Shown: positions 5,366 to 34,889, counted from the stretch's first letter. The stretch: 64,000 nt of DNA from an uncultured Ruminococcus sp. (GCA_902778145.1 CACYWW010000005.1:65013-129012); one strand, 5' to 3'. Notes: generated from the letters alone by a model not told the origin. Numbers and translations: made by a program.

Positions 5366-6544
5366 ATGGTTTTAGCCGGCATAGACAGGATAGACGAGGA
5401 GGACGTCGCGTCAAAGCTCAGAGGCAAACGCCTCGGAGTCATATCATCGACGTCGGGGCTTTCGTCGGATCTCAGATATCCGATGGACGTACTGAATGAA
5501 AAATACAATACAACGGCGCTTTTTGCGCCGGAGCACGGCCCGCGCGGTGTGGCAGGCCCAGGTGAAAAGATCTCGGGCGGTATCGACCGAACGACGGGGC
5601 TTCCCGTTTTCAGTCTTTTCGAGGACTTCCTCACCTCAGCTGACCCCGATGAAAAGGAGCGCGCGTACGCGCCGGCTGACGAGGCCTTATCCCGGATCGA
5701 CATGATGGTGTTCGATATGCAGGACGCGGGCTCCCGCTATTTCACCTACGTTTCAACACTTTTCTACGTCATGCGCGCCTGCGGCAGACGCGGCGTTCCG
5801 CTCACCGTACTCGACCGCCCGAATCCGCTCGGCGGCAAAGTCGAGGGATGCCTGCCGGACGAAAAAAATCTGTCGTTCATAGGTCTGACCCGCGTTCCGA
5901 TCCGCCACGGTATGACGGTCGGGGAGCTCGCGCGCTTTTACAACGGTGAATACGGCCTCGGCTGTGAGCTGACGGTCGTGACGATGCGCGGCTGGGAACG
6001 TGATATGTACTTTGACGATACCGGGCTTCCGTTTATACGTCCGAGTCCCAATCTTCCGACGATGCAGTCCCTTCTCGCCTATAACGGCACTTGCATGCTC
6101 GCCGGGACGAACGTCTCCGAGGGTCGCGGTACGACGGAGCCGTTCACACTCATAGGAGGCGAATTCATAGATCCCGACGCGCTTTGTCAAAGGCTCAGAT
6201 CGAAGGATCTGCCCGGAGTCAGGTTCAGCCCGGCGTATTTCCGTCCGGAATTTTCAAAGCTCGCTCACAGGACGCTGTACGGCGTTCGCCTTCACATATA
6301 CGATAAAAAAGCGCTTGAACCGGTAAGACTCGGAGTCGTCATGATAGACACGATACGGGAGATGTATCCCGATGATTTCGAGTTCACAAAGCCGAAGACA
6401 GAGGGCGGCAGATACCACATAGATCTTTCCACCGGCAATTCCGATCTGCGTGACGGAGTTCTTGACGCCGACGCCATAATGGAAAAGTGGAACGCCGACA
6501 GCGTCAATTTCTATCCGATATACGAAAAATACAGACTTTATTAA
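5366..6544 (+). CDS. DUF1343 family protein (YbbC/NamZ-like exo-muramidase family)
   Basis: 'LFAPEHG', 'MVFDMQDAGSRYFTY' and 'VLDRPNPLGG' match conserved DUF1343 blocks. Start chosen at ATG 5366 (MVLAGIDRI). Confidence 0.75.
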   Translation: MVLAGIDRIDEEDVASKLRGKRLGVISSTSGLSSDLRYPMDVLNEKYNTTALFAPEHGPRGVAGPGEKISGGIDRTTGLPVFSLFEDFLTSADPDEKERAYAPADEALSRIDMMVFDMQDAGSRYFTYVSTLFYVMRACGRRGVPLTVLDRPNPLGGKVEGCLPDEKNLSFIGLTRVPIRHGMTVGELARFYNGEYGLGCELTVVTMRGWERDMYFDDTGLPFIRPSPNLPTMQSLLAYNGTCMLAGTNVSEGRGTTEPFTLIGGEFIDPDALCQRLRSKDLPGVRFSPAYFRPEFSKLAHRTLYGVRLHIYDKKALEPVRLGVVMIDTIREMYPDDFEFTKPKTEGGRYHIDLSTGNSDLRDGVLDADAIMEKWNADSVNFYPIYEKYRLY

Positions 6545-13540: not shown

Positions 13541-15940
13541 TCAGGCGCTCTCTTTCCTCTTTTTGCGGCTGAGGACGCCGAGCAGAACGAGTCCGCCGGC
13601 TATGACGACCGCGGCGCCCGCTACTATCAGCGCTGCGAGCGTGCCGTCCGAGCCGGGGTCATCGGGTCCGTCTGTCTCCGGCTGACCGGGCTCCTCGGAT
13701 ATACTGAGCAGACGTGAGCAGATATAGTACTTTTCACCGTTCTCCGCGGTCTGCGGACAGATCACGGCGAAGCTGCCGCTTCCCGTCGCCGCGCCGCCGG
13801 AAACGGTGACGTCTCCGGACGATACCGCGGCGGTACAGAGCGCCGTCACGTCGAGCTTCGTCCCGTCGCAGTATACGAGCATCGCGCTGATCCTGCCGTC
13901 GGCGTCGACCGACGCTTCAAGCGACGACGGAAGCTTTGCGGCGGAACGGAAATCGGAGGTCATATATCCATCGTATCCGGAAAACATCGCCGACTCTCCG
14001 TCGTCCGCAGCGGGATACACGCCGATGCCGTGCATCGAAAGCATACGCGGGAACCTTTCCGGCGGAAGCAGCGTGCATACGGAATTGAAGGACGTCAGCG
14101 TGCGGCAAAGCGAATGAAGCGACGCGTCGGCGTCACGCCCGTCAAAAACGTTCCAGAGGCCTGTGTATACAGCTGCTGCTCCGGCTTCGTTCGCCGCCTT
14201 CACCGCGGCGGCGGAATCAGATAAGATCACGCATCTCTCCGTCATATCATAGGAGCGCGCGATACCGTGAACGGCAGATACAGCGGCCTCATCGGCGACG
14301 TTTATATCGAACACGACGTCCGTATGCTCGCGGCTGAAGGTCTCGAAAAGCTCCTCGAGCGAGGTGATCCTGTCGTCGCGGCTCATGCGGCTGTCTGTGT
14401 ACGTCAGCGTCTGAAGCGAGGCGTACGCGGATTCCCGGATCAGCGGATCCGACGACATGCCAGACACCCTGTCGCCGCCCGAAAGAACGGGGACTCCGTC
14501 CTTCGTCAGCCTGACCGTGACCGCGATCGCGCGGGCGCCGGAATCGGCAGCGGACAGAATGCTTTTCAGCGTGTTCGCAGGCGCCGCCGCGGTGTCGCCT
14601 CCGTCGCAGATAACGACCTGCCGTCTTATGACGGAGCGGTCGGTGATGCCTTCAAAAGCCTCGATAACGTCCTCGGGATCAGGCGTGACGACGGCGTCAG
14701 CGCCGCAGACAGCCGCGTCGAACGCGGGCAGCGCTCCGGTCTGGGCGACGACCCATACCGATATGAAACGCTTGTGCAGCTCGTATACCGTATCGGGATC
14801 AGCCGCGGATGACGAGAGCATGACGGTTCGCAGACCGTTCGAATAAAGCATCCTGTAAGTTTCGGCGACGTCAACGCTGTCACGCGAGGAAAGGTCCATA
14901 ACGCGTCTTATATACCCGTTTTCCGCGAACTGCGCCGCAAAGGAGGAACGGGAAAAGATGACGAACGCGTCGTCGATGGTGTTCTCCCGGCAATACGCGG
15001 ACAAAAGCTCCGCGCTCTGCTGATCCGTGACGTAAAGCGCCGGGAGCGCAAGTCCGCCGAGTCCGGATATCCTCTCTCCGAGAGGTCCGAGATCGGTCGT
15101 CCCGTCGTAGCAGCGAAGCTCATTGCCCGCGGCTTTGACGGTCATCATAACGGCGCCGGGGCGTCTGTCGTCGGCGGTATAGACGCGCCTTCCGCTCCTG
15201 TCGCGTTCTATTATCAGCGGAACGGACGACGCGGCGGTCGCGACGGTGTAAAGCTCCGAGCGGAACGAGCCGCCTCCACCGGCGCTTTTCGGCACGGTCA
15301 TCGTCACTCTGACGTTGTCGACCGTGAACGTCACTCCGCGTCCGTTTACGCCGATGTATCCTTTGGCGCCGTTCACCGCCCTGCACTCGCAGACAAGCTC
15401 TCCGTCGACATATCCGTAAGCCGCGCCGCCCGTTACGGCGACCGCGAGTCTGAATTCCGAATCGTCGGCGAGCTCGCCGGAAACGAGCTTCCCGGGGTCG
15501 GTATGCGCGGCCGCGCTCAGCTCCGTCCACGAGGACGCGCCTCTCTTTTCAAGCATCGAGACGGCGCCCGCGCAGTCCACCGTGAACTGAATCAGATGAT
15601 CCTCGCTGCCGGCGCCGAAGCAGAGCGCGAACCACGAATTCGCAGAAAGGTGCGATTCGAGCTTTATATCACATTCGAAGAAAAACGTATCCGTGTCGGG
15701 AGCGAACGGGAACAGCGCCGTCGTGACCGGAGGATAAGTATCGGACGCCTCCACGACCATCACGCCGTCCTCCGCGTAAATGCTGCCGTCATCACCGAAG
15801 GTGACGTCGGTCCCGCGCGGCAGCTCTCCGTTCCGGAAATCAGCCTCGAACAGGACGGTCCCCTCGCCGGGTTCCGCTTTCACGTACAAGCCAGGCAAAA
15901 GCAAAAGTACGAGCAAAAAACACGAGATTTTCTTAAACAT
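13541..15940 (-). CDS. secreted, C-terminally membrane-anchored multidomain protein (LamG/ConA-like N-domain; GDPD-like segment)
   Basis: Signal peptide MFKKISCFLLVLLLLPG. The C-terminus is TM plus 'SRKKRKE'. The central '..ANTLKSILSAADSGARAIAVTVRLTKDGVPVL' resembles glycerophosphodiester phosphodiesterase folds, but the usual HR pair is not evident. Start chosen at ATG 15940 (RBS AAGGAAAG). Confidence 0.55.
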   Translation of the reverse strand: MFKKISCFLLVLLLLPGLYVKAEPGEGTVLFEADFRNGELPRGTDVTFGDDGSIYAEDGVMVVEASDTYPPVTTALFPFAPDTDTFFFECDIKLESHLSANSWFALCFGAGSEDHLIQFTVDCAGAVSMLEKRGASSWTELSAAAHTDPGKLVSGELADDSEFRLAVAVTGGAAYGYVDGELVCECRAVNGAKGYIGVNGRGVTFTVDNVRVTMTVPKSAGGGGSFRSELYTVATAASSVPLIIERDRSGRRVYTADDRRPGAVMMTVKAAGNELRCYDGTTDLGPLGERISGLGGLALPALYVTDQQSAELLSAYCRENTIDDAFVIFSRSSFAAQFAENGYIRRVMDLSSRDSVDVAETYRMLYSNGLRTVMLSSSAADPDTVYELHKRFISVWVVAQTGALPAFDAAVCGADAVVTPDPEDVIEAFEGITDRSVIRRQVVICDGGDTAAAPANTLKSILSAADSGARAIAVTVRLTKDGVPVLSGGDRVSGMSSDPLIRESAYASLQTLTYTDSRMSRDDRITSLEELFETFSREHTDVVFDINVADEAAVSAVHGIARSYDMTERCVILSDSAAAVKAANEAGAAAVYTGLWNVFDGRDADASLHSLCRTLTSFNSVCTLLPPERFPRMLSMHGIGVYPAADDGESAMFSGYDGYMTSDFRSAAKLPSSLEASVDADGRISAMLVYCDGTKLDVTALCTAAVSSGDVTVSGGAATGSGSFAVICPQTAENGEKYYICSRLLSISEEPGQPETDGPDDPGSDGTLAALIVAGAAVVIAGGLVLLGVLSRKKRKESA

Positions 15941-15989
15941 ACACTTTCCTTTACAAAAATTCAACAAACGGAAAACAACAAACAGCCGG

Positions 15990-18098: not shown

Positions 18099-19997
18099 TT
18101 ATTTTACTTTTTTCTCTTTCTTTTTCCCGGTCTTCGCCAAAACGAATATACCTATGCCGGCAAGCGCGAGCAGCAGTACCGAGATCACGGCGACAAGCGC
18201 GATGACGAGCACGCCGGGGCCGGTCTTGCCGGTCTTTTCGCCCTGTGTTCCGGGGGCTGTGTCTGCCGCGGTGCTCTGATCGACGCTTTGAACCGGTATC
18301 ACCTCAATGATCTCGACCTTCAGCGGTCCGAGCAGCCGGACATCGCTGTCGTGTTTGCCCTCGACGGTGTTTCTTACGGCGCACAGGCAGTAAATCACGC
18401 CGGTCTTGGACGTGTCGGGAGAGAAGGTATTCTTATCGTTGTTTTCGACGTTGGAAATGAAATTGCCTTTTTCGTCGCATAACGCCCACTGATAATGGAT
18501 CGTACCGCCGTCGTTCACTTCCGCGTTGACGGTGATAGCGAAATCTTCGTCCTTGTGTACCGTATAAGAATCCGGAACAAAGCCGAGGATCGTCGGGATC
18601 TCCGCTTTCTGCAGATCCTCTACGGTGAGCAAGGCGTTTCTTGTTCTGAATTCCCAGCCGTCCGGGGACGCGATCCGGCAGTAAAACGCGCATCCGTCAA
18701 GCCCGGGTATCGCTGTCACGGTGAGCGTATCCGTCGTCGCTCCGCTCACGGTTATACCTGAGGCGCTGTCAAGCGGGACGGGTGTACCGCCGTCCGCCGG
18801 GACAAGATACCAGAGATAGCTCGCCGCGTTCTCCGCCTGTACGCTGAACGTCACCTCATCGCCCGCCTTCGCGATCGTGTTGAAGGGCTCCTTCACTATT
18901 TTGACGGGCTTGACGCCGGTGAATATGACCTTGACGTAAGGCTTGTCGTCGATCGAATTGTCGAACTCGAAATCGTCGCTCGTCTTGTTCGTCACAACGC
19001 AGGTGTAGTACTCGATCCTCGGCGTGTCGTTACCGTTGAGAGTGATATTCTTTCCGTTCTCGCCGGGTATTTTTATGTTGATGTCCGCGGGGTTCCCGCC
19101 CTTATACCACTGATACGAAAGCTCGCCCGTGTCCTTCTCCGGGTCGATTCTGACGTTCATGTTTATCGTCACGTCCTCGTCTTCGAAAACGCGGACCTCA
19201 TTCTGATCGAAGCTGATGATCGTCTGCGGGTCGTATACTCTCATATGCGTCACGCCGGTCTCATAGTAGAAATCGGTGATGCCGTATTTGACATATATCT
19301 GACAGTAGAAGGAATGGGGACCGGGCGTGGTCGCGTACGCGTCAGCCATGAGGACGGGGTCGTGCTCGTCGAGCGCAACACCGCTTTCCTTCGTTCCGTC
19401 CGGAGTCTTATACCAGTTGAATTCAATGTCGTCGAACGTATATCCCGAGGCTTCCGGAACGTACGCAGTAGCGGCGAGCTTTACGAGCTTGAAGCGTCTG
19501 ACCGAGAATTCGGCGATCAGCTCCACAGTCAGCTGTTCGGGAGCGTTGACTGACGTGTAGATCGTCGCGGGATCGCAGTTTTTCGCTCCCGCTTTGTTCG
19601 CCACGGTGCAGGTCGCGACCGCGCCGTAGTTGAATTCACGGATATTATCTATTATGAGCTGATGTTTCACTCTGCCGTTTTCAAGCGTTTCCGTCTTGAA
19701 CGTGACCTTCATCTTGCCGGTGCCGTCAAGCGCCTCGAAGCCCTTGACGCCCGCGTCCTTTGAAAAATCGAAGGTGCGGTCCTCTCCGCCCTCGCTTGTC
19801 TGCATGAGCCAGCTGAAGACGAGATCTTTACCCTCAGCCGTAACGCTGAGAACAGCTCTTTTCCCCGTTCTGACGGTACACGTCATGGGTTCATATATAA
19901 GAGTCGGAAGGTCGTCGTCCGAGACGGCGACGGACGACACGGAAAAGCAGGACATGATCATGACTGCCGCCATCAGCAACACGATGATTTTTTTCAT
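18099..19997 (-). CDS. cell-surface protein with repeated Ig-like beta-sandwich modules, C-terminal TM anchor
   Basis: Signal peptide, about 6 repeated ~90-aa modules (recurring '..Y.W(Y/F)...' and 'Y.C.V.N' patterns), then 'VLVIALVAVISVLLLALAGIGIFVLAKTGKKKEKKVK'. Confidence 0.6.
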   Translation of the reverse strand: MKKIIVLLMAAVMIMSCFSVSSVAVSDDDLPTLIYEPMTCTVRTGKRAVLSVTAEGKDLVFSWLMQTSEGGEDRTFDFSKDAGVKGFEALDGTGKMKVTFKTETLENGRVKHQLIIDNIREFNYGAVATCTVANKAGAKNCDPATIYTSVNAPEQLTVELIAEFSVRRFKLVKLAATAYVPEASGYTFDDIEFNWYKTPDGTKESGVALDEHDPVLMADAYATTPGPHSFYCQIYVKYGITDFYYETGVTHMRVYDPQTIISFDQNEVRVFEDEDVTINMNVRIDPEKDTGELSYQWYKGGNPADINIKIPGENGKNITLNGNDTPRIEYYTCVVTNKTSDDFEFDNSIDDKPYVKVIFTGVKPVKIVKEPFNTIAKAGDEVTFSVQAENAASYLWYLVPADGGTPVPLDSASGITVSGATTDTLTVTAIPGLDGCAFYCRIASPDGWEFRTRNALLTVEDLQKAEIPTILGFVPDSYTVHKDEDFAITVNAEVNDGGTIHYQWALCDEKGNFISNVENNDKNTFSPDTSKTGVIYCLCAVRNTVEGKHDSDVRLLGPLKVEIIEVIPVQSVDQSTAADTAPGTQGEKTGKTGPGVLVIALVAVISVLLLALAGIGIFVLAKTGKKKEKKVK

Positions 19998-20598: not shown

Positions 20599-20645
20599 AA
20601 TTCCCTGTCGTCATACATAAAAAAACCGAGAAAGCTCATAATAAG

Positions 20646-20671
20646 ACCGCGGGCGGAAAGTCCGCGGTTTT
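20646..20671 (+). terminator. intrinsic terminator
   Basis: Stem accgcgg/ccgcggt followed by TTT. It lies between the 20188 gene and paralog 1. Confidence 0.55.
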
Positions 20672-20686
20672 AGAAGGAGCTTTTTT

Positions 20687-21310
20687 ATGGTTTTGAAGAA
20701 AATTACCGCGATCGTTTTCACGGCGGTCGCGGCGCTGGCTCTCGCGGTCGGCGTATCCGCGGTGGGTCACACGTCCGCGGATCAGGTCTTCGGCGCCGAC
20801 GGCAGGACGGATCTCGCGTCCGTCGGTCAGAACGACGTGACGGGGACCTCTCTCGGCACGATCACGGATGATAAGCTTACGTTATGGGGCTGGTACGCGG
20901 ACGAGCAGAAGATATCGGAATTCGGCTACCGTTACGGTGACAGCGTCACTCTCGGCTCGCCCAAATACACGGGCGGAGCCGACGATGAGACGATAGCGGG
21001 TCAGGCGGGCGCGCTCGGCTACGCTGACGGTGAATCCGTCCGCTTCAGGATAGAGAACATCCCCGTCGTCAAGGGCGACAACGTAGAGCTTTACGCCGTG
21101 GCGAAGCTTGAGAACGGCGAGACCGTGGACATCTGGCGCATCACGTATTCGAGCGCCGGCGGCATCGACATGCCGGGCGGACAGACGTCCCCGGGTGCGC
21201 ATCCCGCGCCCGAAAATCCGCAGACGGCGGACGCGTCCGTCGTCGCGGTGGCGGTCGTCTCCGCGATCTCTCTCGCCTTCACGGCAATCACAAGGAAGAT
21301 CAGGCTGTAA
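20687..21310 (+). CDS. secreted surface-protein paralog 1 (module B; C-terminal NPQTAD-TM-basic tail)
   Basis: Signal peptide. The 'LWGW...EFGYRYGD..LGSPK...ESVRFRIE' module is shared with paralog 4. The C-terminus is 'ENPQTADASVVAVAVVSAISLAFTAITRKIRL'. Confidence 0.8.
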   Translation: MVLKKITAIVFTAVAALALAVGVSAVGHTSADQVFGADGRTDLASVGQNDVTGTSLGTITDDKLTLWGWYADEQKISEFGYRYGDSVTLGSPKYTGGADDETIAGQAGALGYADGESVRFRIENIPVVKGDNVELYAVAKLENGETVDIWRITYSSAGGIDMPGGQTSPGAHPAPENPQTADASVVAVAVVSAISLAFTAITRKIRL

Positions 21311-21315
21311 GCCGG

Positions 21316-21360
21316 GGCGGGAACGCCGGGAGGTCTTTAGACCTTCCGCGTTCCCGTTTT
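21316..21360 (+). terminator. intrinsic terminator after paralog 1
   Basis: Long imperfect hairpin gcgggaacgc...gcgttcccg followed by TTTT. Confidence 0.6.
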
Positions 21361-21413
21361 CCGACAAACGCGCCGTTTTTATCCGGCGGCGGTCATTTTT
21401 TTATCGAACATTA

Positions 21414-21442
21414 TTGACAAACGCGGTTTCATATGATATAAT
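21414..21442 (+). promoter_or_regulatory. promoter of paralog 2
   Basis: TTGACA, 17 nt, TATAAT with TGa extended -10. Confidence 0.6.
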
Positions 21443-21491
21443 GCGGCTAAAGCTAAAGGCTGAATTTCAATATCATAAAAAGGAGAAAGAA

Positions 21492-22613
21492 ATGAAAAAG
21501 ATCATTGCAGTACTGCTTTCAGTCGTAATGGCGGCAGCTATGTTCACTGCGGCAGTAGTCGTCAACGCTGACGACGTGACCGCGAAGGTCGTTATCGGTT
21601 CCGAAGCAAAGACTTCGACTCCGAACGGCAATCAGGTCGAAATGTCCATGAACGGTTCCAACCTCGTCGTCAAGACGAACGAAGGCGCAAACGACCCGTG
21701 GATCTCCATCCCGCTCGACAGCGTCGACACAAGCGTTTACAACGCTTTCACGGTCAAGTTCAAGGCGGACAAAGCCATCAGCACGAACAACACCTACCTT
21801 ATGGATACCGAGAAGAACCCCGGTTATTCCGCAACGGCCGGCACATGGGTACCCAACGGTATGGGCAGCCTGGCGGACGGTCAGTGGCACGAGCTCACTT
21901 ATGAGATCACCAGCTTCTCCGTCATGGTCGGAACGAAGCTTACCGGCGTCCGTCTCACGATGTGCGTTGAAGGCGGCACGTTCGAGCTCGAATCCGTGAC
22001 CTTCTCCAAGGTCACCCCGAAGGATCCCGATCTGTGGCTCTGCAAAGCGGGCAGCCAGAACGTAGCTCCCGGTTACTGGATGAACGATCCGTATGACAGC
22101 ACCAGAAACATAGACATCACCCTCACCTCCACCTCCGCTTTCAACGGTCTTTGCGCGATGATGTACGCGAATAAGCCCGCCGATCCCGAGCCCTGCGTCG
22201 TACACATCTCTCTGAAGGACGGCGACGGCAAAGAGCTTGAAGCTCAGGATTTCCAGGTCTCTCAGGATGACAAAGGCGACGGTGTTTACAGCGTCTACTT
22301 CAAGAATACCCACAACGCGGGCAAGTACACCATCTCCATCACTCCGGGCGGCAAGGGTAAGTATTTCGTACTCGGCGGCTCCGAGAAGGGCGACATTGAC
22401 GTTACCGTGGAAGGCAACTTCGGTACCGCGGATCAGTACATACATGACGCTCCCTGCGCGTTCCTTATAGGCGCGGCTCCCGTCGATGAGACTCCCGCCG
22501 ACGATCCCACTCCCACCGACAACCCCGGTACCGCTGACGCTTCCGTCATCGCTATCGCCGCTGTCGCCTGCATCGCTCTTGCCGGCGTCGTAGTTGCGAA
22601 GAAGGTCAGATAA
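21492..22613 (+). CDS. secreted surface-protein paralog 2 (modules A + C; NPGTAD-TM-KKVR)
   Basis: ATG 21492 (MKKIIAVLL) has AGGAGAAAG upstream; the longer ORF 21108 is an Arg-rich run-in. Module A is shared with paralog 3 and module C with paralog 6. Confidence 0.85.
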   Translation: MKKIIAVLLSVVMAAAMFTAAVVVNADDVTAKVVIGSEAKTSTPNGNQVEMSMNGSNLVVKTNEGANDPWISIPLDSVDTSVYNAFTVKFKADKAISTNNTYLMDTEKNPGYSATAGTWVPNGMGSLADGQWHELTYEITSFSVMVGTKLTGVRLTMCVEGGTFELESVTFSKVTPKDPDLWLCKAGSQNVAPGYWMNDPYDSTRNIDITLTSTSAFNGLCAMMYANKPADPEPCVVHISLKDGDGKELEAQDFQVSQDDKGDGVYSVYFKNTHNAGKYTISITPGGKGKYFVLGGSEKGDIDVTVEGNFGTADQYIHDAPCAFLIGAAPVDETPADDPTPTDNPGTADASVIAIAAVACIALAGVVVAKKVR

Positions 22614-22628
22614 TTCAATTTGAATTTC

Positions 22629-22655
22629 AAAAAACCGCCGTACGGCGGTTTTTTG
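22629..22655 (+). terminator. intrinsic terminator after paralog 2
   Basis: aaaaaCCGCCGtacGGCGGtttttt. Confidence 0.85.
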
Positions 22656-22718
22656 AAGTTTTCCGGCAGTTATATAGTCATTTTTTCAAAAACAAAAGCA
22701 CAAATTTGAAAAACAGTC

Positions 22719-22747
22719 TTGACATTTTTCGGCGATTATGATAGAAT
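22719..22747 (+). promoter_or_regulatory. promoter of paralog 3
   Basis: TTGACA, 17 nt, TAGAAT with TGa extended -10. Confidence 0.6.
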
Positions 22748-22782
22748 AGCATAGCAGGATTAATTTTATCAGGAGGTAAATT

Positions 22783-23436
22783 ATGAAAAAAATTCTTGCT
22801 ATGGCAGTCGTCATCGTTATGATGTTTGCCGTATGTGCCGCTACGGTATCGGCCGAGTCCGATCACATCAACATCGACATTACCGCCGCTACCGGCAGCA
22901 GTGTTGAGCTTACGGTCGCTGACGGCAAAGTAGTCGCAAAGACGAACGGCGGAGACCCGTGGGTATCCATCCCGCTCAACGAAGTTGACACTTCCGTCTA
23001 CACCTACTTCACCATCCTTTACAGAGCCGACAAAGAGATCGGTTCCAACAACACCTATCTTATGGACACTTCCGTTAACCCGGGTTACTCCGGAACGCAG
23101 GGCACGTGGACAGGTCACGGCATGGCGGGTACCGCCGACGGCGAGCTCCATACCAAACAGTACAACATCGCGGACTTCCCGGCGATGGCCGGCACCAAGC
23201 TTACCGGCGTACGTTTCACCGCCTGCGGTGATGTCGACGGTCAGTTCACCATCGAAGGTCTCGTCTTCTCCTCTGTCCCGTACGATCAGATAAGCGGTGA
23301 TGACGAGCCTGCCACTCCCTCCGACAACCCCACTCCCGCCGACAACCCCGGTACCGCTGACGCTTCCGTCATCGCTATCGCCGCTGTCGCCTGCATCGCT
23401 CTTGCCGGCGTAGTCGTTGCGAAGAAAGTCAGATAA
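22783..23436 (+). CDS. secreted surface-protein paralog 3 (module A; NPGTAD-TM-KKVR)
   Basis: MKKILAMAVV signal peptide. 'DPWVSIPLNEVDTSVY..F...YRADKEIGSNNTYLMDT..NPGYS' parallels paralog 2. Confidence 0.85.
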   Translation: MKKILAMAVVIVMMFAVCAATVSAESDHINIDITAATGSSVELTVADGKVVAKTNGGDPWVSIPLNEVDTSVYTYFTILYRADKEIGSNNTYLMDTSVNPGYSGTQGTWTGHGMAGTADGELHTKQYNIADFPAMAGTKLTGVRFTACGDVDGQFTIEGLVFSSVPYDQISGDDEPATPSDNPTPADNPGTADASVIAIAAVACIALAGVVVAKKVR

Positions 23437-23453
23437 TTCAGACTGAATATCAG

Positions 23454-23477
23454 AAAACCGCCGCAAGGCGGTTTTTT
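23454..23477 (+). terminator. intrinsic terminator after paralog 3
   Basis: aaaaCCGCCGcaaGGCGGtttttt. Confidence 0.85.
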
Positions 23478-23527
23478 GATCTCAATTGGTTTTTTATGGC
23501 GACTCAATATTTTTTATTCAAAAAGTA

Positions 23528-23556
23528 TTGACAATCCTGCAAAAACATGATACAAT
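23528..23556 (+). promoter_or_regulatory. promoter of paralog 4
   Basis: TTGACA, 17 nt, TACAAT with TGa extended -10. Confidence 0.6.
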
Positions 23557-23591
23557 ACAACCGGCATGAATAAAAATATAGGAGGTATACC

Positions 23592-24227
23592 ATGAAAAAA
23601 ATTCTTGCTATCGCAGTCGTAGCTCTTATGACTGTGGCTCTCTGCATCAGCGCAAGCGCTCTGCATCACACCTCTCCCGACCAGATCCTGGCAGGTTCTG
23701 ACGGACACGATCTCGCATCTGTCGGCAACAACAACGCAGCAGGCACCGATCTCGGCGCCATCACCGAAGAGAGCTTCTTCTTCTGGGGCTGGCACTCCAC
23801 CGAAGTTGAAGGCGGCATAACCGAATTCGGTTACCGTTACGGCGACGTTACCGTACTCGGTTCTCCGAAATTCTACCATGACAACTCCAACGATGCCGGC
23901 AAACAAGACAACGATACCATCGCTTCTCAGTGCGGCGGCGTAGGCGAATCCGTTCGTTTCAGAATCGAGGTTCCGGTACTTAAGGGCGAACAGGAAGTCG
24001 TTGCTGTCGTTAAGCTTGCTGACGGCACCGTCGAAGACATGTGGACCGTCAAGTACTCCGCCGAAAACGGCAAGACCCTTGAGGATATCACCCCCAAGGC
24101 TGACGATCCCGCTCCCACCGATCCGACTCCTTCCAACCCCGATACCGCTGACGCTTCCGTCATCGCTATCGCGGCTGTCGCCTGCATCGCTCTTGCCGGC
24201 GTAGTCGTCGCGAAGAAAGTCAAATAA
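23592..24227 (+). CDS. secreted surface-protein paralog 4 (module B; NPDTAD-TM-KKVK)
   Basis: MKKILAIAVV signal peptide. Module B is homologous to paralog 1. Confidence 0.85.
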   Translation: MKKILAIAVVALMTVALCISASALHHTSPDQILAGSDGHDLASVGNNNAAGTDLGAITEESFFFWGWHSTEVEGGITEFGYRYGDVTVLGSPKFYHDNSNDAGKQDNDTIASQCGGVGESVRFRIEVPVLKGEQEVVAVVKLADGTVEDMWTVKYSAENGKTLEDITPKADDPAPTDPTPSNPDTADASVIAIAAVACIALAGVVVAKKVK

Positions 24228-24242
24228 TTCATACTGAATTAC

Positions 24243-24270
24243 AAAAAACCGCCGCAAGGCGGTTTTTTGT
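24243..24270 (+). terminator. intrinsic terminator after paralog 4
   Basis: aaaaaaCCGCCGcaaGGCGGtttttt. Confidence 0.85.
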
Positions 24271-24271
24271 C

Positions 24272-24300
24272 TTGACAAAACTCACTCAACATGATATAAT
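24272..24300 (+). promoter_or_regulatory. promoter of paralog 5
   Basis: TTGACA, 17 nt, TATAAT with TGa extended -10. It abuts the preceding terminator. Confidence 0.6.
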
Positions 24301-24332
24301 TGCTCCAGCATGAATAAAATCAGGAGGTAACT

Positions 24333-24956
24333 ATGAAAAAAATTCTTGCTGTTATTCTCGCAGCGGTATTCTCCGCCGCTCTTTGTGTTGCCGCGTCTGC
24401 TCAGTTCAGTCTCGACAGACTCAACATCAACGCCAACACTCTGACCACCATGCCCGACGATCCGATCAAAACCGCGGACGAAGTCAAGATCGCGGTCGGC
24501 GACAAGCTTTATATCCTCGGCTGGGCGATGAACACCGAGACGAATTCCAACCTCAAGGAAGTCGTTTACACAATCGACGGAGCTGAAAAGAAATGCGCCG
24601 ACAACTACAGAGACAGACCCGGTCTTTGCGAATACTTCGGAATGGCCGATAACTCTCTCAACCGTCACGCCGGTTTCGGCACTGACGAAAGCGCCTTAGA
24701 GCTCACCGGTATCGATAAGCTCGGCGACGGCACATACAAGATGGCGATCATCGCAAAGTATGAAGACGGAACGACCGAAGATCTCAAGCCCGAATTCACA
24801 CTCGTCGTCGGTACCGGTGAAAACAAGGCTGAGGATCCCACTCCCGCCGATCCGACTCCTTCCAACCCCGATACCGCTGACGCTTCCGTCATCGCTATCG
24901 CGGCTGTCGCCTGCATAGCTCTCGCCGGCGTAGTCGTTGCGAAGAAAGTCAGATAA
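24333..24956 (+). CDS. secreted surface-protein paralog 5 (divergent B-like module; NPDTAD-TM-KKVR)
   Basis: MKKILAVILA signal peptide, 'LYILGWA....EVVYTIDG', and the same C-terminal 30 aa. Confidence 0.85.
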   Translation: MKKILAVILAAVFSAALCVAASAQFSLDRLNINANTLTTMPDDPIKTADEVKIAVGDKLYILGWAMNTETNSNLKEVVYTIDGAEKKCADNYRDRPGLCEYFGMADNSLNRHAGFGTDESALELTGIDKLGDGTYKMAIIAKYEDGTTEDLKPEFTLVVGTGENKAEDPTPADPTPSNPDTADASVIAIAAVACIALAGVVVAKKVR

Positions 24957-24973
24957 TTCAGACTGAATATCAG

Positions 24974-24997
24974 AAAACCGCCGCAAGGCGGTTTTTT
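24974..24997 (+). terminator. intrinsic terminator after paralog 5
   Basis: aaaaCCGCCGcaaGGCGGtttttt. Confidence 0.85.
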
Positions 24998-25030
24998 CAA
25001 CTTGCAGACAAAGTTTTTATTCTTTATTCT

Positions 25031-25127
25031 ACTCCTTCCGTCACGACTGAACGTCGTGACACGCAAAACAAGGCTCCTCCCTTGGGGGAGCTGTCATCCG
25101 GGAAGCTTCCCGGATGACTGAGGGAGT
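25031..25127. other. orphan multi-hairpin segment (three hairpins closed by a 5-bp outer helix), function unknown
   Basis: Hairpins are gtcacgac/gtcgtgac (25040-25060), gctcc..ggagc (25073-25091) and a perfect 26-bp palindrome gtcatccgggaagcttcccggatgac (25093-25118). The outer pairing is actcc (25031-35) with ggagt (25123-27). Confidence 0.4.
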
Positions 25128-25142
25128 TTGTCTTCACTCTGA

Positions 25143-25167
25143 GAAAACCGCCGCAAGGCGGTTTTTT
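25143..25167 (+). terminator. extra copy of the family terminator with no gene in front
   Basis: aaaaCCGCCGcaaGGCGGtttttt, identical to those after paralogs 3-6. Confidence 0.7.
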
Positions 25168-25309
25168 GATCAAACGCGCAATGATATACGAAGCGGACGC
25201 CGAAACGGCTCTCTCCCGGCTCTCGCTCAACACCGGTCATTTTCGGTCCGTATCCCGGGAAACACACCGGTTTTGAATAAATAAAAAGCTCAAAAAAATA
25301 AAAAAACTA

Positions 25310-25338
25310 TTGACAATATACAACAACTGTGCTAAAAT
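25310..25338 (+). promoter_or_regulatory. promoter of paralog 6
   Basis: TTGACA, 17 nt, TAAAAT with TGc extended -10. Confidence 0.55.
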
Positions 25339-25378
25339 AAATCAGCATGAATTATACAATATATACAGGAGGTATAAC

Positions 25379-26506
25379 ATGAAGAAAATTCTTGCTATTG
25401 CGATAGCGGTCGTTATGACTGTCGCTCTGTTCGCTGTCACGTCGACAGCTGCTGACGCGAAGTGCCTCATCACGGCTGAACAGCTTTCCGCTGAGACCAA
25501 CACAACGAAAAGCGGCGTAAGCTTTGAGCTCAAGGAAGAAGGCGGAGAGAAATTCGCCAGATTCACAGCCGTGGACCTCGATCCGCACCTTTATCTCTCG
25601 CCCGACGTCACGACGGACGTTGCCAATCACTTCGCGGTCATAAAATACAGAACGACCTCCGAAGCCGCTACGATCGACGCTTATATGGCAGGCGCAGAGC
25701 CGCACACGGTATTCACGAATATCGAAAACGACGGCAACTGGCATATGTGCTACGGCGATCTTGAGCAGTCCGGCGCTAACTGGACCGGCAAGTTCAGCCG
25801 TCTTGACCCGCTGAACAACGGCAGCCTCAAGGAAGGCGACACGATCGACATCGCCTGGATCGCTCTGTTCGCATCCGAGGATGACGCGAAAGCCTACACC
25901 GGCCCCGCTGCCGGCGAGACTCCCGTCGCTCCCGAACCCGAGAAATCCGCAGACCAGTGGCTCGGCGGCAGCGAACCTGCCGGTCACTCTACCGGTTGGT
26001 GGATGAACCCCATCGCCGAGGGCTGCGACAAATACATCAAAATAGGCTTCACGGCTGCCGGCAACTTCAGCGGCATCCACGGCTACTACCTCTGCAACCC
26101 GACCACGTCCAACGAAGGTCCGACCGTAGTTAAGGCTCAGATCCTCAAGGGCGACACCGTTCTTGCGGAAAAAGAGATCCCCGTAGACGGCGACGCCTGG
26201 TACGACACCGATTTCGGCAAGACCATCCCCGCCGGCGACTACACGCTCTCCTTCCTGCCCGTTTCCGGTAACGGCGGCTGGTTCGTTCTCGGTTCTTATG
26301 ACGGCCAGGGCGATTGGACGATAGACACCAACTGCGCGACAAACGACGCCACCAAGACTCATCCCGAGATCATGCTCATCGGCGCCGCTGCTGCAGCCGA
26401 TCCTCAGCCCTCCAACCCCGGTACCGCTGACGCTTCCGTTATAGCCATCGCGGCTGTAGCCTGCGTAGCTCTCGCCGGCGTTGTAGTCGCAAAGAAGATC
26501 AGATAA
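25379..26506 (+). CDS. secreted surface-protein paralog 6 (A-like + C modules; NPGTAD-TM-KKIR)
   Basis: ATG 25379 (MKKILAIAIA) with AGGAGGT upstream. Module C ('GWWMNP', 'FVLGS', 'LIGAAA') parallels paralog 2. Confidence 0.85.
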   Translation: MKKILAIAIAVVMTVALFAVTSTAADAKCLITAEQLSAETNTTKSGVSFELKEEGGEKFARFTAVDLDPHLYLSPDVTTDVANHFAVIKYRTTSEAATIDAYMAGAEPHTVFTNIENDGNWHMCYGDLEQSGANWTGKFSRLDPLNNGSLKEGDTIDIAWIALFASEDDAKAYTGPAAGETPVAPEPEKSADQWLGGSEPAGHSTGWWMNPIAEGCDKYIKIGFTAAGNFSGIHGYYLCNPTTSNEGPTVVKAQILKGDTVLAEKEIPVDGDAWYDTDFGKTIPAGDYTLSFLPVSGNGGWFVLGSYDGQGDWTIDTNCATNDATKTHPEIMLIGAAAAADPQPSNPGTADASVIAIAAVACVALAGVVVAKKIR

Positions 26507-26520
26507 GCTGACTTAATATC

Positions 26521-26546
26521 AAAAAACCGCCGCAAGGCGGTTTTTT
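26521..26546 (+). terminator. intrinsic terminator after paralog 6
   Basis: aaaaaaCCGCCGcaaGGCGGtttttt. Confidence 0.85.
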
Positions 26547-26647
26547 GAATTCATATTCCCGCCCGCAGATCACGAAAATTTACCGCCAATACACCAAATA
26601 AAAGAAAAGATAATATATAATAAGTTAAAACGGGAGCGGAGGTTATT

Positions 26648-28351
26648 ATGGATCTGACATTTTCAAAAAACACAGTACACGTTTTTTCCGCGTGGTTCGG
26701 AAGGAATTCAAACGTACAGAGCTTTGTCGCGGAAGAAAAAAGAAGACCTCCTTACCCGTGCCGCACACCGGACGCTCTTCCCGCGGCCGATCCCGAGGAG
26801 GTCGGTATCGAAAGCGGCAGGATAATGAAGTTTTACAAACGTCTTGCCCGCGAGGATTCGATAAAGATGCAGACCGTGATCATAGCCCGGAACGGGCACG
26901 TCATATCACGCGCTCATTTTTATCCGTACTCGACCGATATCTGGCACGTCTCTCACTCCCTCGCAAAATCGCTGACCGGGCTCGCGGTCGGTCTGTTGTT
27001 TGACGACGGGCTGATCTCGCCTGACGACAAGCTGCTCGACTTTTTCAAGGACGCGCCGCCCGCCGCGAGGATCAATCACAAAAACACGACAATCCACCAC
27101 CTTCTGACGATGCAGACCGGCGTGTTCTTCAACGAAGCCGGCGCCGTCACCGATACAGACTGGGTGCGCGCTTATCTTGAATCCGGCGTGAAATTCCGTC
27201 CGGGAACTCAGTTCGAATACAACAGCATGAACACGTATATCCTCTCCGCTATCGTAAAGAGGATATCCGGAAAAGGTACCCTGCAGCTTTTGAGGGAGCG
27301 TATTTTCGAGCCGCTCGGTATCCGTGACATATTCTGGGAAAAATGTCCGCGCGGCATCGAAAAAGGCGGCTGGGGCATCTATTACTACCCCGACGACATT
27401 CTGAAGATCGGTCAGCTTTACCTGAATGGCGGAGTATGGGAGGGCAAGCGCCTGCTCTCGGAAAAATGGATAAAAGAATCGACGAAGAAGCAGATCGACA
27501 CCCCGGATGAGACCGGTATCTACGGTTACGGCTATCAGGTCTGGTGCAAGGAGGACAGGAGCACGTTCCTGTTCAACGGGATGTTCGGTCAGAACCTGAT
27601 CGTCTTTCCGAGGACGAACATCATGATAGCGACGACGGCGGGCATAGACGAGACGTTCCAGAACAGCGCGCTTTACTCGATCGTCGAGGAATATTTCGGC
27701 ACGCCGTACCGTCCGCGCGCGGGGCTGGCAAAGGATCCCGCGGCGCTTGCGGCGCTTAGGGCGCTCGAGCCGTCTCTTGTGATGCACAACAGCGACGCGT
27801 ACAAATACGGCGGCTCCTCTTCCCTTCCCGCGCTTGACGGCGTTTACGAGATACAGGGGAACGACGGCTTCGGTCTTTCGATCCTGCCGGAGCTATATCA
27901 AGCGGTCCACAACAACTTTGCGGAAGGGCTGAAGCGGGTCACTCTCAGCGTGAACGGCGGTGAGGGCGAGCTCACGACGCTCGAGGGTGAGACCGCGCAC
28001 ACGGTAAAATTCGGCATCGGTCACGAGGTCCCCGGCTGTATCGAATACGGCGGCGAATCCATACTGACGTCCGCGCGCGCGTATGACGCGGGCGGCGGGA
28101 AAATGAAGATAACGATCACGTTCCCGGAGCTGCCGAATATCAGATATATAACGCTTGAAAAGACGGAGGACGGCGTTTCCGCAAAGTGGGAGGAGGCGCC
28201 CGGATACGACTTTTTATATAAAATGATGGACAGATCGTTTCTCGGAAAGCTGATGCTCGGCGACAAAAAGAAGGCGGTCGACGCCGATTTCATCACTCGC
28301 CGCGTCAAATATTTCCTGCAGCCGACTGTCAAAATGAAGAAAGTACGGTAA
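26648..28351 (+). CDS. serine hydrolase, beta-lactamase-fold family with C-terminal extension
   Basis: 'SHSLAKSLTG' SxxK motif, 'YNSMNTY' (YxN-like), and a ~200-aa C-terminal domain. Confidence 0.75.
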   Translation: MDLTFSKNTVHVFSAWFGRNSNVQSFVAEEKRRPPYPCRTPDALPAADPEEVGIESGRIMKFYKRLAREDSIKMQTVIIARNGHVISRAHFYPYSTDIWHVSHSLAKSLTGLAVGLLFDDGLISPDDKLLDFFKDAPPAARINHKNTTIHHLLTMQTGVFFNEAGAVTDTDWVRAYLESGVKFRPGTQFEYNSMNTYILSAIVKRISGKGTLQLLRERIFEPLGIRDIFWEKCPRGIEKGGWGIYYYPDDILKIGQLYLNGGVWEGKRLLSEKWIKESTKKQIDTPDETGIYGYGYQVWCKEDRSTFLFNGMFGQNLIVFPRTNIMIATTAGIDETFQNSALYSIVEEYFGTPYRPRAGLAKDPAALAALRALEPSLVMHNSDAYKYGGSSSLPALDGVYEIQGNDGFGLSILPELYQAVHNNFAEGLKRVTLSVNGGEGELTTLEGETAHTVKFGIGHEVPGCIEYGGESILTSARAYDAGGGKMKITITFPELPNIRYITLEKTEDGVSAKWEEAPGYDFLYKMMDRSFLGKLMLGDKKKAVDADFITRRVKYFLQPTVKMKKVR

Positions 28352-34740: not shown

Positions 34741-34889
34741 ATCACTACACCTCACAATACTATTTATATCATCTGGTTTTCGATACCATTATAACACATA
34801 GTTTTGATTATGTCAAGGCTTTTTTCGCTATTGACAAATGAATTTTTTTATGATATAATGGGGCATGATAAAAAAAGAGAGGCAGTAAA

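Follow-up and report, generated by a model that had tools for sequence, protein, structure and literature searches.

The array at positions 20687-26506 of the window (the whole 64,000-nucleotide stretch of DNA analysed here) probably codes for six small, lineage-specific cell-surface proteins that are anchored by a sortase and display binding modules, in an uncultured rumen Clostridia bacterium of the cellulosome type. We hold this explanation with moderate confidence. The six genes lie on the + strand where the sequence-only reading had placed them, and their products share a common build of signal peptide, one or two all-beta modules, Pro/Thr-rich linker and C-terminal anchor. The gene g1 (20687-21310) encodes 207 aa; its signal peptide is followed by a predicted Ig-like 'GW' module of the A type and by the tail NPQTADASVVAVAVVSAISLAFTAITRKIRL, a diverged copy coded at 21215-21310. 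In g2 (21492-22613; 373 aa) a signal peptide is followed by two predicted jelly-roll modules, B and C, a linker and the tail (22521-22613). Module B alone is present in g3 (22783-23436; 217 aa; tail 23344-23436), an A-type module in g4 (23592-24227; 211 aa; tail 24135-24227), a predicted D-type Ig-like module in g5 (24333-24956; 207 aa; tail 24864-24956), and modules B2 and C in g6 (25379-26506; 375 aa; tail 26414-26506). The products of g1 and g4 share 47.5% identity over the module, module B of g3 and the N-terminal module of g2 share 52%, and the D-type module of g5 is a distant relative of the A-type. The mature domains differ between members while both ends stay conserved, and g1 is the diverged outlier of the array. 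The dN/dS values between strains, 0.19-0.67, indicate real genes.

Read from the sequence, all six N-termini combine a basic, K-rich n-region with a hydrophobic core and a cleavage site of the AxA type; none contains a lipobox. The Sec signal peptide that is expected at the N-terminus of LPXTG-type substrates can be read in 6/6 products. The proteins open with MKKILA in g3-g6, with MKKIIA in g2 and with MVLKKITA in g1, and the earlier description of five genes opening with MKKI(L/I)A is correct for g2-g6. With signal peptides and tails in 6/6, the products look secreted and C-terminally anchored, as had been proposed. The accompanying proposal of one tail on all six is accurate for g2-g6, whose tails are almost identical to one another, but the g1 copy has diverged (53% identity to the g2 tail).

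The tail consists of NPxTAD, about 19 hydrophobic residues and KKVR, and all six proteins end in this order of motif, hydrophobic stretch and K/R residues. The motif reads NP(Q/G/D)T-A-D in the six genes, and the tail alignments show P, T and D without variation at exactly the positions of a sortase motif. The hydrophobic segment, SVIAIAAVACIALAGVVVA, is followed by KKVR, which provides the at least two basic residues of a sorting signal, and the AlphaFold2 models of g2 and g5 place a terminal helix at the tail. NPxTA lies 30-31 residues from the C-terminus with Ala instead of Gly at P1', so the strict pattern [LN]PxTG (17-45 residues from the end) is not matched. The class B pattern of P4 Asn, P3 Pro, P1 Thr and P2' Asp is found in 6/6. 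None of the sorting-signal models searched reached its curated cutoff with the tail: the tail alone gave sub-threshold scores with GVDTG_CTERM (16.4 bits) and, for the g2 tail, with Rumino_NPXTG NF033846 (11.9 bits, cutoff 23.5), and no match with TIGR01167 (LPXTG, cutoff 15.9 bits) or TIGR03063 (srtB_target); the g1 tail did not match Rumino_NPXTG. A search of 1.84 billion representatives with the tail profile returned 161 clusters, nearly all matching at the extreme C-terminus. These relatives form a gradient from NPxTAD through NPxTSD to NPxTGD and TPxTGD. The Gly-bearing relatives P0142, P0148 and P0124 score above the Rumino_NPXTG cutoff (24.2, 23.8 and 23.8 bits), and the membrane segment of P0124 is essentially identical to that of the window tail; other Gly-containing relatives exceed the LPXTG_anchor cutoff (16.1-20.6 against 15.9). 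The most fitting interpretation of the tail is a cell-wall sorting signal of the sortase type in which Ala replaces Gly after Thr (NPxTA-D against NPxTG-D), which refines the earlier notion of a mere anchor. Ala at P1' has a precedent in the LPNTA motif of Bacillus anthracis.

Judged by its motif, the NPxTAD signal would be the Ruminococcus NPXTG signal with Gly exchanged for Ala, and it resembles class B and clostridial signals. With Rumino_NPXTG it shares N-P-x-T, a hydrophobic helix and a basic C-terminal end on secreted proteins of rumen and gut Clostridia, and relatives that combine the same helix with a P1' Gly exceed the cutoff of that model. It differs in having Ala (sometimes Ser) at P1', then an invariant Asp-Ala, and an almost invariant helix. 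The class B and clostridial signals compared, DNPKTGDE of B. anthracis IsdC, NPQTN of Staphylococcus aureus and (S/P)PXTG of Clostridioides difficile, likewise have Asn or a small polar residue at P4, Pro at P3, Thr at P1 and Asp at P2'. The SrtB of B. anthracis requires NPKTG together with the P2' Asp (PMC11987632), and cleavage after Thr has been demonstrated for the SrtB of C. difficile (PMC4155245). Unlike class B signals, the tail described here has Ala rather than Gly or Asn at P1', and it occurs on many substrates per genome instead of one haem protein. An adjacent srtB is also lacking: neither the window nor the related arrays examined contain a sortase gene.

Two other explanations of the tail have to be weighed. 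It may be a plain, uncleaved C-terminal membrane anchor of type I membrane proteins, in which the small-residue-rich helix AIAAVACIALAG packs with itself or with a membrane partner and NPxTAD is only a conserved juxtamembrane segment; we consider this unlikely. Alternatively, it may be the signal of a dedicated non-sortase system, analogous to the CTERM signals of exosortases, rhombosortases and archaeosortases, whose membrane segments are also strongly conserved; this is very unlikely. Conservation speaks for both: between species the tail shows a dN of 0.087, a dS of 1.16 and an amino-acid identity of 0.86, so that strong purifying selection acts across the entire helix; this selection also counts in favour of a sorting signal. 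A near-invariant membrane segment is atypical for sortase substrates, and the helix itself could be functional. A plain anchor is also consistent with scores below all sorting-signal cutoffs and with the lack of a sortase gene (TLxTC motif) in the window and in the ~200 kb of related loci checked (L004-L022); the Sortase Pfam family is likewise missing from the families listed on further related contigs. The non-sortase system draws on the narrow taxonomic range (8 of 185,579 species representatives) and on the 'CTERM' type of the top, though sub-threshold, NCBIfam match. However, the tails grade into bona fide NPXTG- and LPXTG-scoring anchors with the same helix, and the invariant motif positions fit sortase logic, which argues against either alternative. 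The tripartite layout of motif, hydrophobic stretch and basic end, placed after a Pro/Thr linker typical of wall-spanning regions, further disfavours a plain anchor, and the finding of no candidate processing enzyme near any of ~30 loci speaks against a dedicated system.

The mature parts had been described as beta-rich, binding-module-like and free of catalytic motifs, and structure prediction and family searches agree. No module match above cutoff was obtained for the six proteins with Pfam or NCBIfam, profile searches of the PDB with the modules gave nothing relevant, and no catalytic family matched the mature parts. Assignment of the modules to a well-known family, which together with a common and conserved arrangement would have made the array ordinary, did not occur with any Pfam or PDB sequence family. 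The AlphaFold2 model of g2 (pLDDT 77) has two beta domains, and residues 350-372 form a helix at its C-terminus; that of g5, likewise all-beta, reached a pLDDT of 80. The proposed comparison with CBM, lectin and adhesin folds yielded CBM/SGBP/lectin-like and Ig-like folds: Foldseek matched the g2 model to Endo-D, SGBP-B, F-lectin, CBM22 and CBM86 (E 7e-7 to 1e-3, TMq 0.2-0.3, identity 6-16%) and the g5 model to Ig-like/E-set structures. Modules B, B2 and C are predicted to be CBM-like jelly-rolls, and A and D Ig-like sandwiches. The fold matches are weak overall (TM-scores 0.2-0.3, identity 6-19%), so that we infer a glycan-binding role from fold class and neighbourhood. Single family members elsewhere adjoin GH3, GH29, GH43 and GH43-CBM6 genes, and the window itself encodes a dockerin protein.

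The modules might instead serve as protein-protein adaptors of the cellulosome that tether dockerins, cohesins or X-modules of secreted components to the wall. In one relative, a dockerin protein of 1644 aa and cohesin proteins contain embedded modules of the A, D and C types, and one family member adjoins those genes; this context is in keeping with the main explanation as well. NPxT(A/S)D tails occur on cohesin scaffoldins of relatives. Nevertheless, we find an adaptor role doubtful: Pfam Cohesin (PF00963) and Dockerin_1 (PF00404) match 0/6 proteins by a method that detects them in related proteins, no cohesin structure is among the best 50 Foldseek matches of g2, where CBM, lectin and SGBP folds dominate, and the neighbouring genes of some family members encode glycoside hydrolases. 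In Ruminococcus flavefaciens, another cellulosome-type rumen species of the Clostridia, sortase fastens the scaffoldin-class protein ScaE covalently to the wall and CttA binds cellulose through its CBMs (PMC4081043). The relatives' cohesin scaffoldins with NPxT(A/S)D tails recall this system, which favours the sortase reading of the tail; unlike ScaE and CttA, the six proteins lack cohesin and dockerin, apparently anchor binding-type modules directly, and are encoded by monocistronic genes that stand in tandem. Bacteroides SGBP-B (PDB 7kwb), one of the top structural matches of g2, similarly exposes surface-tethered tandem beta-sandwich modules with no catalytic domain, and the GH genes beside some family members are a further point of likeness to SGBPs. 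SGBPs differ in their N-terminal lipid anchor, Gram-negative outer membrane and PUL operons, and SGBP-B has no sequence relationship with g2, with TM-scores of only ~0.23.

The array had been described as six independent promoter-gene-terminator units, and this applies to g2-g6, which all have an extended -10 promoter close to the consensus, a strong RBS and a common terminator; for g1, no consensus promoter precedes the gene and a stem is predicted to sequester the RBS. A scan for TTGACA-17-TAnAAT located the promoters, all on the + strand, at 21414-21442 (g2; TTGACA-17-TATAAT, 12/12), 22719-22747 (g3; 11/12), 23528-23556 (g4; 11/12), 24272-24300 (g5; 12/12, beginning 3 nt past the g4 terminator) and 25310-25338 (g6; 11/12). 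The TG extension, earlier assigned to most of them, is present in all five. The scan gave 11 promoter-like sites against 4.0 ± 1.9 in shuffles; near-consensus promoters are frequent in this genome (20 per 64 kb). Other shared elements proved less uniform than first described. The 5'-UTR motif GCATGAAT, ascribed to g2-g6, is exact in g4-g6 only, degenerate in g3 and absent from g2, and g2 has the RBS AAGGAGAA rather than the supposedly common AGGAGGTA. The terminator CCGCCGCAAGGCGG with a T-run, reported after every gene, follows g3-g6 (24242-24269 for g4, 24971-24997 for g5, 26519-26548 for g6). A variant of it, CCGCCGTACGGCGG, palindromic with A- and T-runs, follows g2 (22623-22660), but the hairpin after g1 (21313-21363, then a second weak hairpin at 21371-21391) is unlike the others in sequence. 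Linker end, tail and terminator form a conserved 3' cassette of ~175 nt, a sequence repeat with five copies on the + strand (22481-22654, 23304-23479, 24095-24268, 24824-24997 and 26374-26547). From these signals, g2-g6 are separate units and probably strongly and constitutively expressed.

The copy-number comparison between strains that had been suggested showed that cassette content varies: strains with flanks 97-99% identical differ in which cassettes are present, and three of the four examined junctions lie in tail/terminator repeats. L002 carries an extra cassette, the recombination junction being the 3' cassette copy at 23304-23479; most of g1 is deleted in L023; and g4 shows an SNP cluster against L002 at 23676-23781. 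The variation demonstrated between strains is gain, loss and replacement of whole cassettes, not within-cell switching. To the sequence-only reading, the six units suggested surface variants under individual regulation or with alternate expression, which would amount to phase or antigenic variation within a cell line. Monocistronic units, mature domains that vary between conserved ends and the strain differences would suit such a system, which we nonetheless regard as highly improbable. The promoters of g2-g6 are strong sigma-70 consensus sites that hardly differ from one another, and no distinct operator-like sequences accompany them. Phase-variable hallmarks are lacking in the array, with no invertible promoters or segments and no length-variable repeat tracts; the only inverted repeats are the palindromic terminators, and the A7 run found at the start codons keeps its length across the four strains compared. 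Next to the array, neither a recombinase nor a regulator gene was noted. The vlp/vsp genes of Mycoplasma are tandem paralogs with a shared promoter/signal-peptide 5' block and variable mature regions, in which recombination drives repertoire change. The array resembles them in its conserved ends and variable middles, but it has no phase-variable promoter tracts or site-specific inversion, its 3' anchor and terminator are also conserved, and its documented variation is between strains only.

Under the preferred explanation of sortase-anchored binding proteins, each product would be exported by Sec and would display one or two beta-sandwich modules, the jelly-rolls B, B2 and C or the Ig-like A and D, on a Pro/Thr/Asp-rich wall-spanning linker. 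The C-terminal sorting signal (NPxTAD, ~19 hydrophobic residues, KKVR) would hold the protein, and a sortase would cut after Thr and link it to peptidoglycan. The ligands of the modules may be plant-fibre glycans or else other components of the surface or the cellulosome, and the cell would gain a range of specificities for adhesion and capture. The repertoire shifts from strain to strain as whole cassettes are gained, lost or replaced, and most of the examined junctions lie in the tail/terminator repeats. The family is lineage-specific and confined to a few rumen species. A further-reaching idea, which we rate as rather unlikely, is that NPxTAD and the near-invariant helix together direct proteins into a dedicated sorting route that is restricted to a small clade of rumen fibre degraders and serves cohesin scaffoldins and dozens of mini-proteins, with the arrays as a recombining 'module library'. 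If so, a specialised sortase or other membrane enzyme would recognise motif and helix together. By means of the conserved 5' and 3' cassettes, the same binding modules could be exchanged between wall-anchored mini-proteins and large cellulosome components, and surface specificity could be retuned, or phage and protozoa escaped, on strain-level timescales.

Downstream of g5, an ORF-less structured segment with three hairpins (24998-25170, + strand) ends in an orphan seventh family terminator (25144-25170). Its predicted RNA fold has an energy of -76 kcal/mol (z = -8.7), and it matches no Rfam family. The segment is a variable unit of the array: it is absent from L023 and L024, with the junction in a terminator repeat.

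The array comprises six plus-strand genes: g1 (20687-21310, 207 aa), g2 (21492-22613, 373 aa), g3 (22783-23436, 217 aa), g4 (23592-24227, 211 aa), g5 (24333-24956, 207 aa) and g6 (25379-26506, 375 aa). All six open reading frames proposed in the sequence-only reading were located, and its overall description proved largely right; the finding is real. Each product carries a Sec-type signal peptide, starting with MKKILA in g3-g6, MKKIIA in g2 and MVLKKITA in g1. The common C-terminal tail, in which NPxTAD is followed by hydrophobic residues and then a basic end, is likewise present on all six, but that of g1 is only 53% identical to that of g2. No further ORF of the 64-kb window ends in an NPxTAD-type tail. 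The best explanation of the array is a lineage-specific set of sortase-type wall-anchored proteins that have binding modules, end in a new form of the NPXTG signal (NPxTAD) and are encoded by recombining cassettes.

The predicted TTGACA-17-TAnAAT promoter with a TG extension was found upstream of each of the genes g2-g6, and the scan returned 11 promoter-like sites versus 4.0 +/- 1.9 in shuffled sequences. Near-consensus promoters are common in this genome (20 per 64 kb in the window scan), so the special feature of the array is the allocation of one promoter to each gene and not promoter quality. At 34816 (minus strand) and 34831 (plus strand), two promoters that match the consensus perfectly (12/12) and have TG extensions stand back to back, serving divergent genes. 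The terminator said to be shared by all units, the hairpin CCGCCGCAAGGCGG followed by a T-run, occurs after g3-g6, while g2 is followed by a one-pair variant and g1 by a different terminator. Similarly, the 5′-UTR motif GCATGAAT is exact in g4-g6 but not in g1-g3. The g1 gene is the outlier of the array, with a diverged tail, its own terminator, no consensus promoter and an RBS predicted to lie in a stem, the partner of which is the upstream terminator region. The preceding gene (136 aa) has its terminator hairpin immediately 5′ of g1 (20630-20686), and in a predicted longer stem (z = -8.2) positions 20630-20637 pair with the g1 Shine-Dalgarno region. Expression of g1 may depend on read-through, and its translation may be poor.

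The suggestion that the units are alternately expressed was not borne out, as the promoters show no operator-like differences. Phase variation by promoter inversion is rejected, since the array contains no invertible segments, and so is slipped-strand variation, since the A-run at the start codon is invariant in length in four strains. The strong promoters, RBSs and terminators suggest instead that the units are expressed constitutively, abundantly and independently.

The layout of the tail is that of a classic tripartite cell-wall sorting signal, with a motif, a hydrophobic segment and a basic end; on its N-terminal side is a Pro/Thr/Asp-rich linker. By itself the tail stays below the cutoffs of the curated models, with 11.9 bits for Rumino_NPXTG ("NPXTG-anchored protein"; cutoff 23.5) and 16.4 bits for GVDTG_CTERM (cutoff 29). 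The matches to a tail profile span a continuum that starts at NPxTAD and leads via NPxTSD to NPxTGD and TPxTGD. Three glycine-bearing relatives score above the Rumino_NPXTG cutoff (24.2, 23.8 and 23.8 bits); further ones exceed the cutoff of the general LPXTG_anchor model. One relative above the Rumino_NPXTG cutoff, P0124, has a membrane segment essentially equal to that of the window tail. Because of this continuum to members that pass anchor-model cutoffs, the tail is best read as a known sortase signal in which Ala (or Ser) has taken the place of Gly. SrtB of B. anthracis requires NPKTG plus Asp at P2′ (PMC11987632), and the residues flanking the window motif agree with this class B/clostridial sortase logic. 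More distant NPxT(A/S)D tails ending in ...GKKALKK are carried by cohesin-bearing scaffoldins, a class of protein that is attached to the wall by sortase in R. flavefaciens (PMC4081043). Literature searches for NPxTA(D) motifs returned nothing relevant.

Within the array the tails are homogenised, with 85-97% DNA identity among g2-g6, whereas the mature parts are 33-52% identical or unrelated. Between species, the tails retain an amino-acid identity of 0.86 (dN 0.087) at a saturated dS of 1.16. Recent gene conversion alone is therefore rejected as the source of tail conservation, and the substitution pattern indicates that the whole anchor is under selection and conserved at the protein level. 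This includes a constrained membrane helix, which is unusual among sortase substrates and keeps two alternatives to the sortase reading alive. It is unlikely, though conceivable, that the tail serves as an uncleaved functional membrane anchor, and quite improbable that it is read by a dedicated sorting enzyme; the continuum to glycine-bearing members speaks for a sortase signal. The main gap in the sortase reading is that searches for a sortase gene came back empty, both those with the TLxTC motif (window and loci L004-L022) and those in the Pfam lists of later contigs. Lipoprotein anchoring is rejected: the Cys of "..ALC.." follows Leu or Val and forms no lipobox, and g6 has no Cys there. Two other secreted proteins of the window, a 632-aa Ig-domain protein (18099-19997, minus strand) and an 808-aa GDPD-domain protein (13541-15967, minus strand), have at their C-terminus a plain membrane anchor and a K-rich tail but no NPxTAD motif, so the lineage has at least two kinds of C-terminal anchoring.

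A search with the g2 protein returned 103 proteins, all unnamed or "hypothetical", the named ones being from "Clostridia bacterium" MAGs. The tail is present on all 103 regardless of the mature domain, and a single one has a precomputed Pfam domain; an exact-sequence lookup of g2 gave no record. A degenerate pattern of the tail DNA matched 19 stretches in 8 of 185,579 species-representative genomes, all of them rumen MAGs (yak, buffalo, goat, cattle) with several, often tandem, copies each. An exhaustive tail profile search yielded 161 clusters at 50% identity, nearly all matching at the extreme C-terminus, and the 44-aa tail retrieved four short proteins only from a word-indexed protein search.

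The repeat unit of the array has conserved ends. The 5′ block comprises the promoter, the RBS and the start of the signal peptide, and the 3′ block of about 175 nt, present in five copies, covers the linker end, the tail and the terminator. Between them lie modules of predicted Ig-like (A, D) or jelly-roll (B, B2, C) type, some of which are weakly linked to one another. Module A occurs in g1 and g4, and its distant relative D (E = 3e-5) in g5. Module B makes up g3 and the N-terminal half of g2; B2, with weak, indirect links to B only, the N-terminal half of g6; and C the C-terminal halves of g2 and g6. Order and combination of modules differ among homologues.

Pfam and NCBIfam scans of the full proteins gave nothing above cutoff, and PDB sequence profiles gave no useful match for the modules. 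The AF2 model of g2 (pLDDT 77) comprises a pair of beta-sandwich domains plus a terminal helix; Foldseek matched it to CBM- and lectin-type sandwiches, including Endo-D, Bacteroides SGBP-B, F-lectin, CBM22 and CBM86, with high probabilities, low TM-scores (0.2-0.3) and low identity. The g5 model (pLDDT 80) is a generic Ig-like/E-set sandwich. These models agree with the earlier description of the mature parts as beta-rich and binding-module-like. We infer that the modules bind ligands, most likely glycans and possibly cellulosome proteins. The genomic context adds weight to this role. On contig L026 the family member P0022 adjoins the cohesin scaffoldin P0186 and a dockerin protein of 1644 aa, both built in part from the module types of the array. 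In the dockerin protein, for instance, some stretches match P0085-like and P0022-like segments at 57-62% identity, and P0186 has three repeats of P0035-like "GW" modules. In other species, single family members adjoin GH3, GH29, GH43 and GH43-CBM6 genes. The window itself encodes a secreted 630-aa protein with SH3_3 repeats and a C-terminal type I dockerin (58140-60032, minus strand), which implies that the organism has a cellulosome-type system. In a related rumen organism (L026 1656-9940, L027 530-6907), A/D/C-type modules of the small anchored proteins recur in three other proteins: the dockerin protein of 1644 aa, a cohesin scaffoldin of 1027 aa whose tail reads NPQTAD...GKKALKK, and a cohesin-dockerin-SGNH protein.

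Rumen fibre breakdown hinges on the retention of enzymes and substrates at the bacterial surface. Current models miss the NPxTAD signal; once it is defined, annotators could spot the wall-anchored surface proteome of the clade, anchoring scaffoldins included. The family adds at least five unclassified beta-sandwich module types. They recur in mini surface proteins and in cellulosome components alike, and could for that reason represent new CBM or X-module families. The narrow taxonomic range limits the practical reach, and those who work on rumen biology, cellulosomes or sortases should find the array moderately interesting.

The array also represents a clear natural case of cassette turnover, chiefly via the conserved anchor/terminator repeats. 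At this locus, upstream of a beta-lactamase-family gene, two M16 peptidase genes and Lgt, closely related strains have differing cassette sets; the comparison proposed earlier revealed whole cassettes gained, lost and replaced. In strain locus L002 (~99% identical), g3 and g4 are separated by an additional B2 cassette of 225 aa, and the overlap of the two blocks of the alignment is exactly the 176-nt tail/terminator repeat. Locus L023 (~97%) is devoid of g3, g5 and most of g1 and has a B2 cassette and an additional A-type cassette; at its positions 5967-5975 an in-frame 519-nt deletion (window 20730-21248) fuses signal-peptide coding to membrane-anchor coding sequence. Locus L024 (~97%) keeps g1, g2, g3, g5 and g6, with a divergent A-type gene replacing g4. 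In another species, RGIG3597, the equivalent position is occupied by an array of five genes, two of them inverted. The dN/dS of orthologous cassettes is 0.19-0.67 versus 0.05-0.35 for flanking genes, with no signal of gene-wide positive selection; the cassettes are, on these ratios, real genes under relaxed purifying selection. The window differs from L002 at 36 sites within the 3.5 kb compared, and 17 of them fall in 106 nt (23676-23781) of the N-terminal part of the g4 module, a cluster that points to a patch of gene conversion by another A-type copy. Directly 3′ of the array, a beta-lactamase-fold protein (26648-28351, plus strand), conserved in position in several species, matches the 3-succinylated cholic acid synthase model strongly but below cutoff (198.7 bits, cutoff 800).

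Between g5 and g6, an ORF-less 145-nt segment (24998-25170) contains three hairpins (-76 kcal/mol, z = -8.7) with an orphan family terminator at its end. Rfam gave only sub-threshold, terminator-driven matches in the array and none for this segment. It is missing in L023 and L024 (window 24998-25141, with junctions within terminator repeats), and in L002 it differs by a single C>T at 25110 that retains the pair as G-U. The segment may represent a small RNA or the remains of a cassette.
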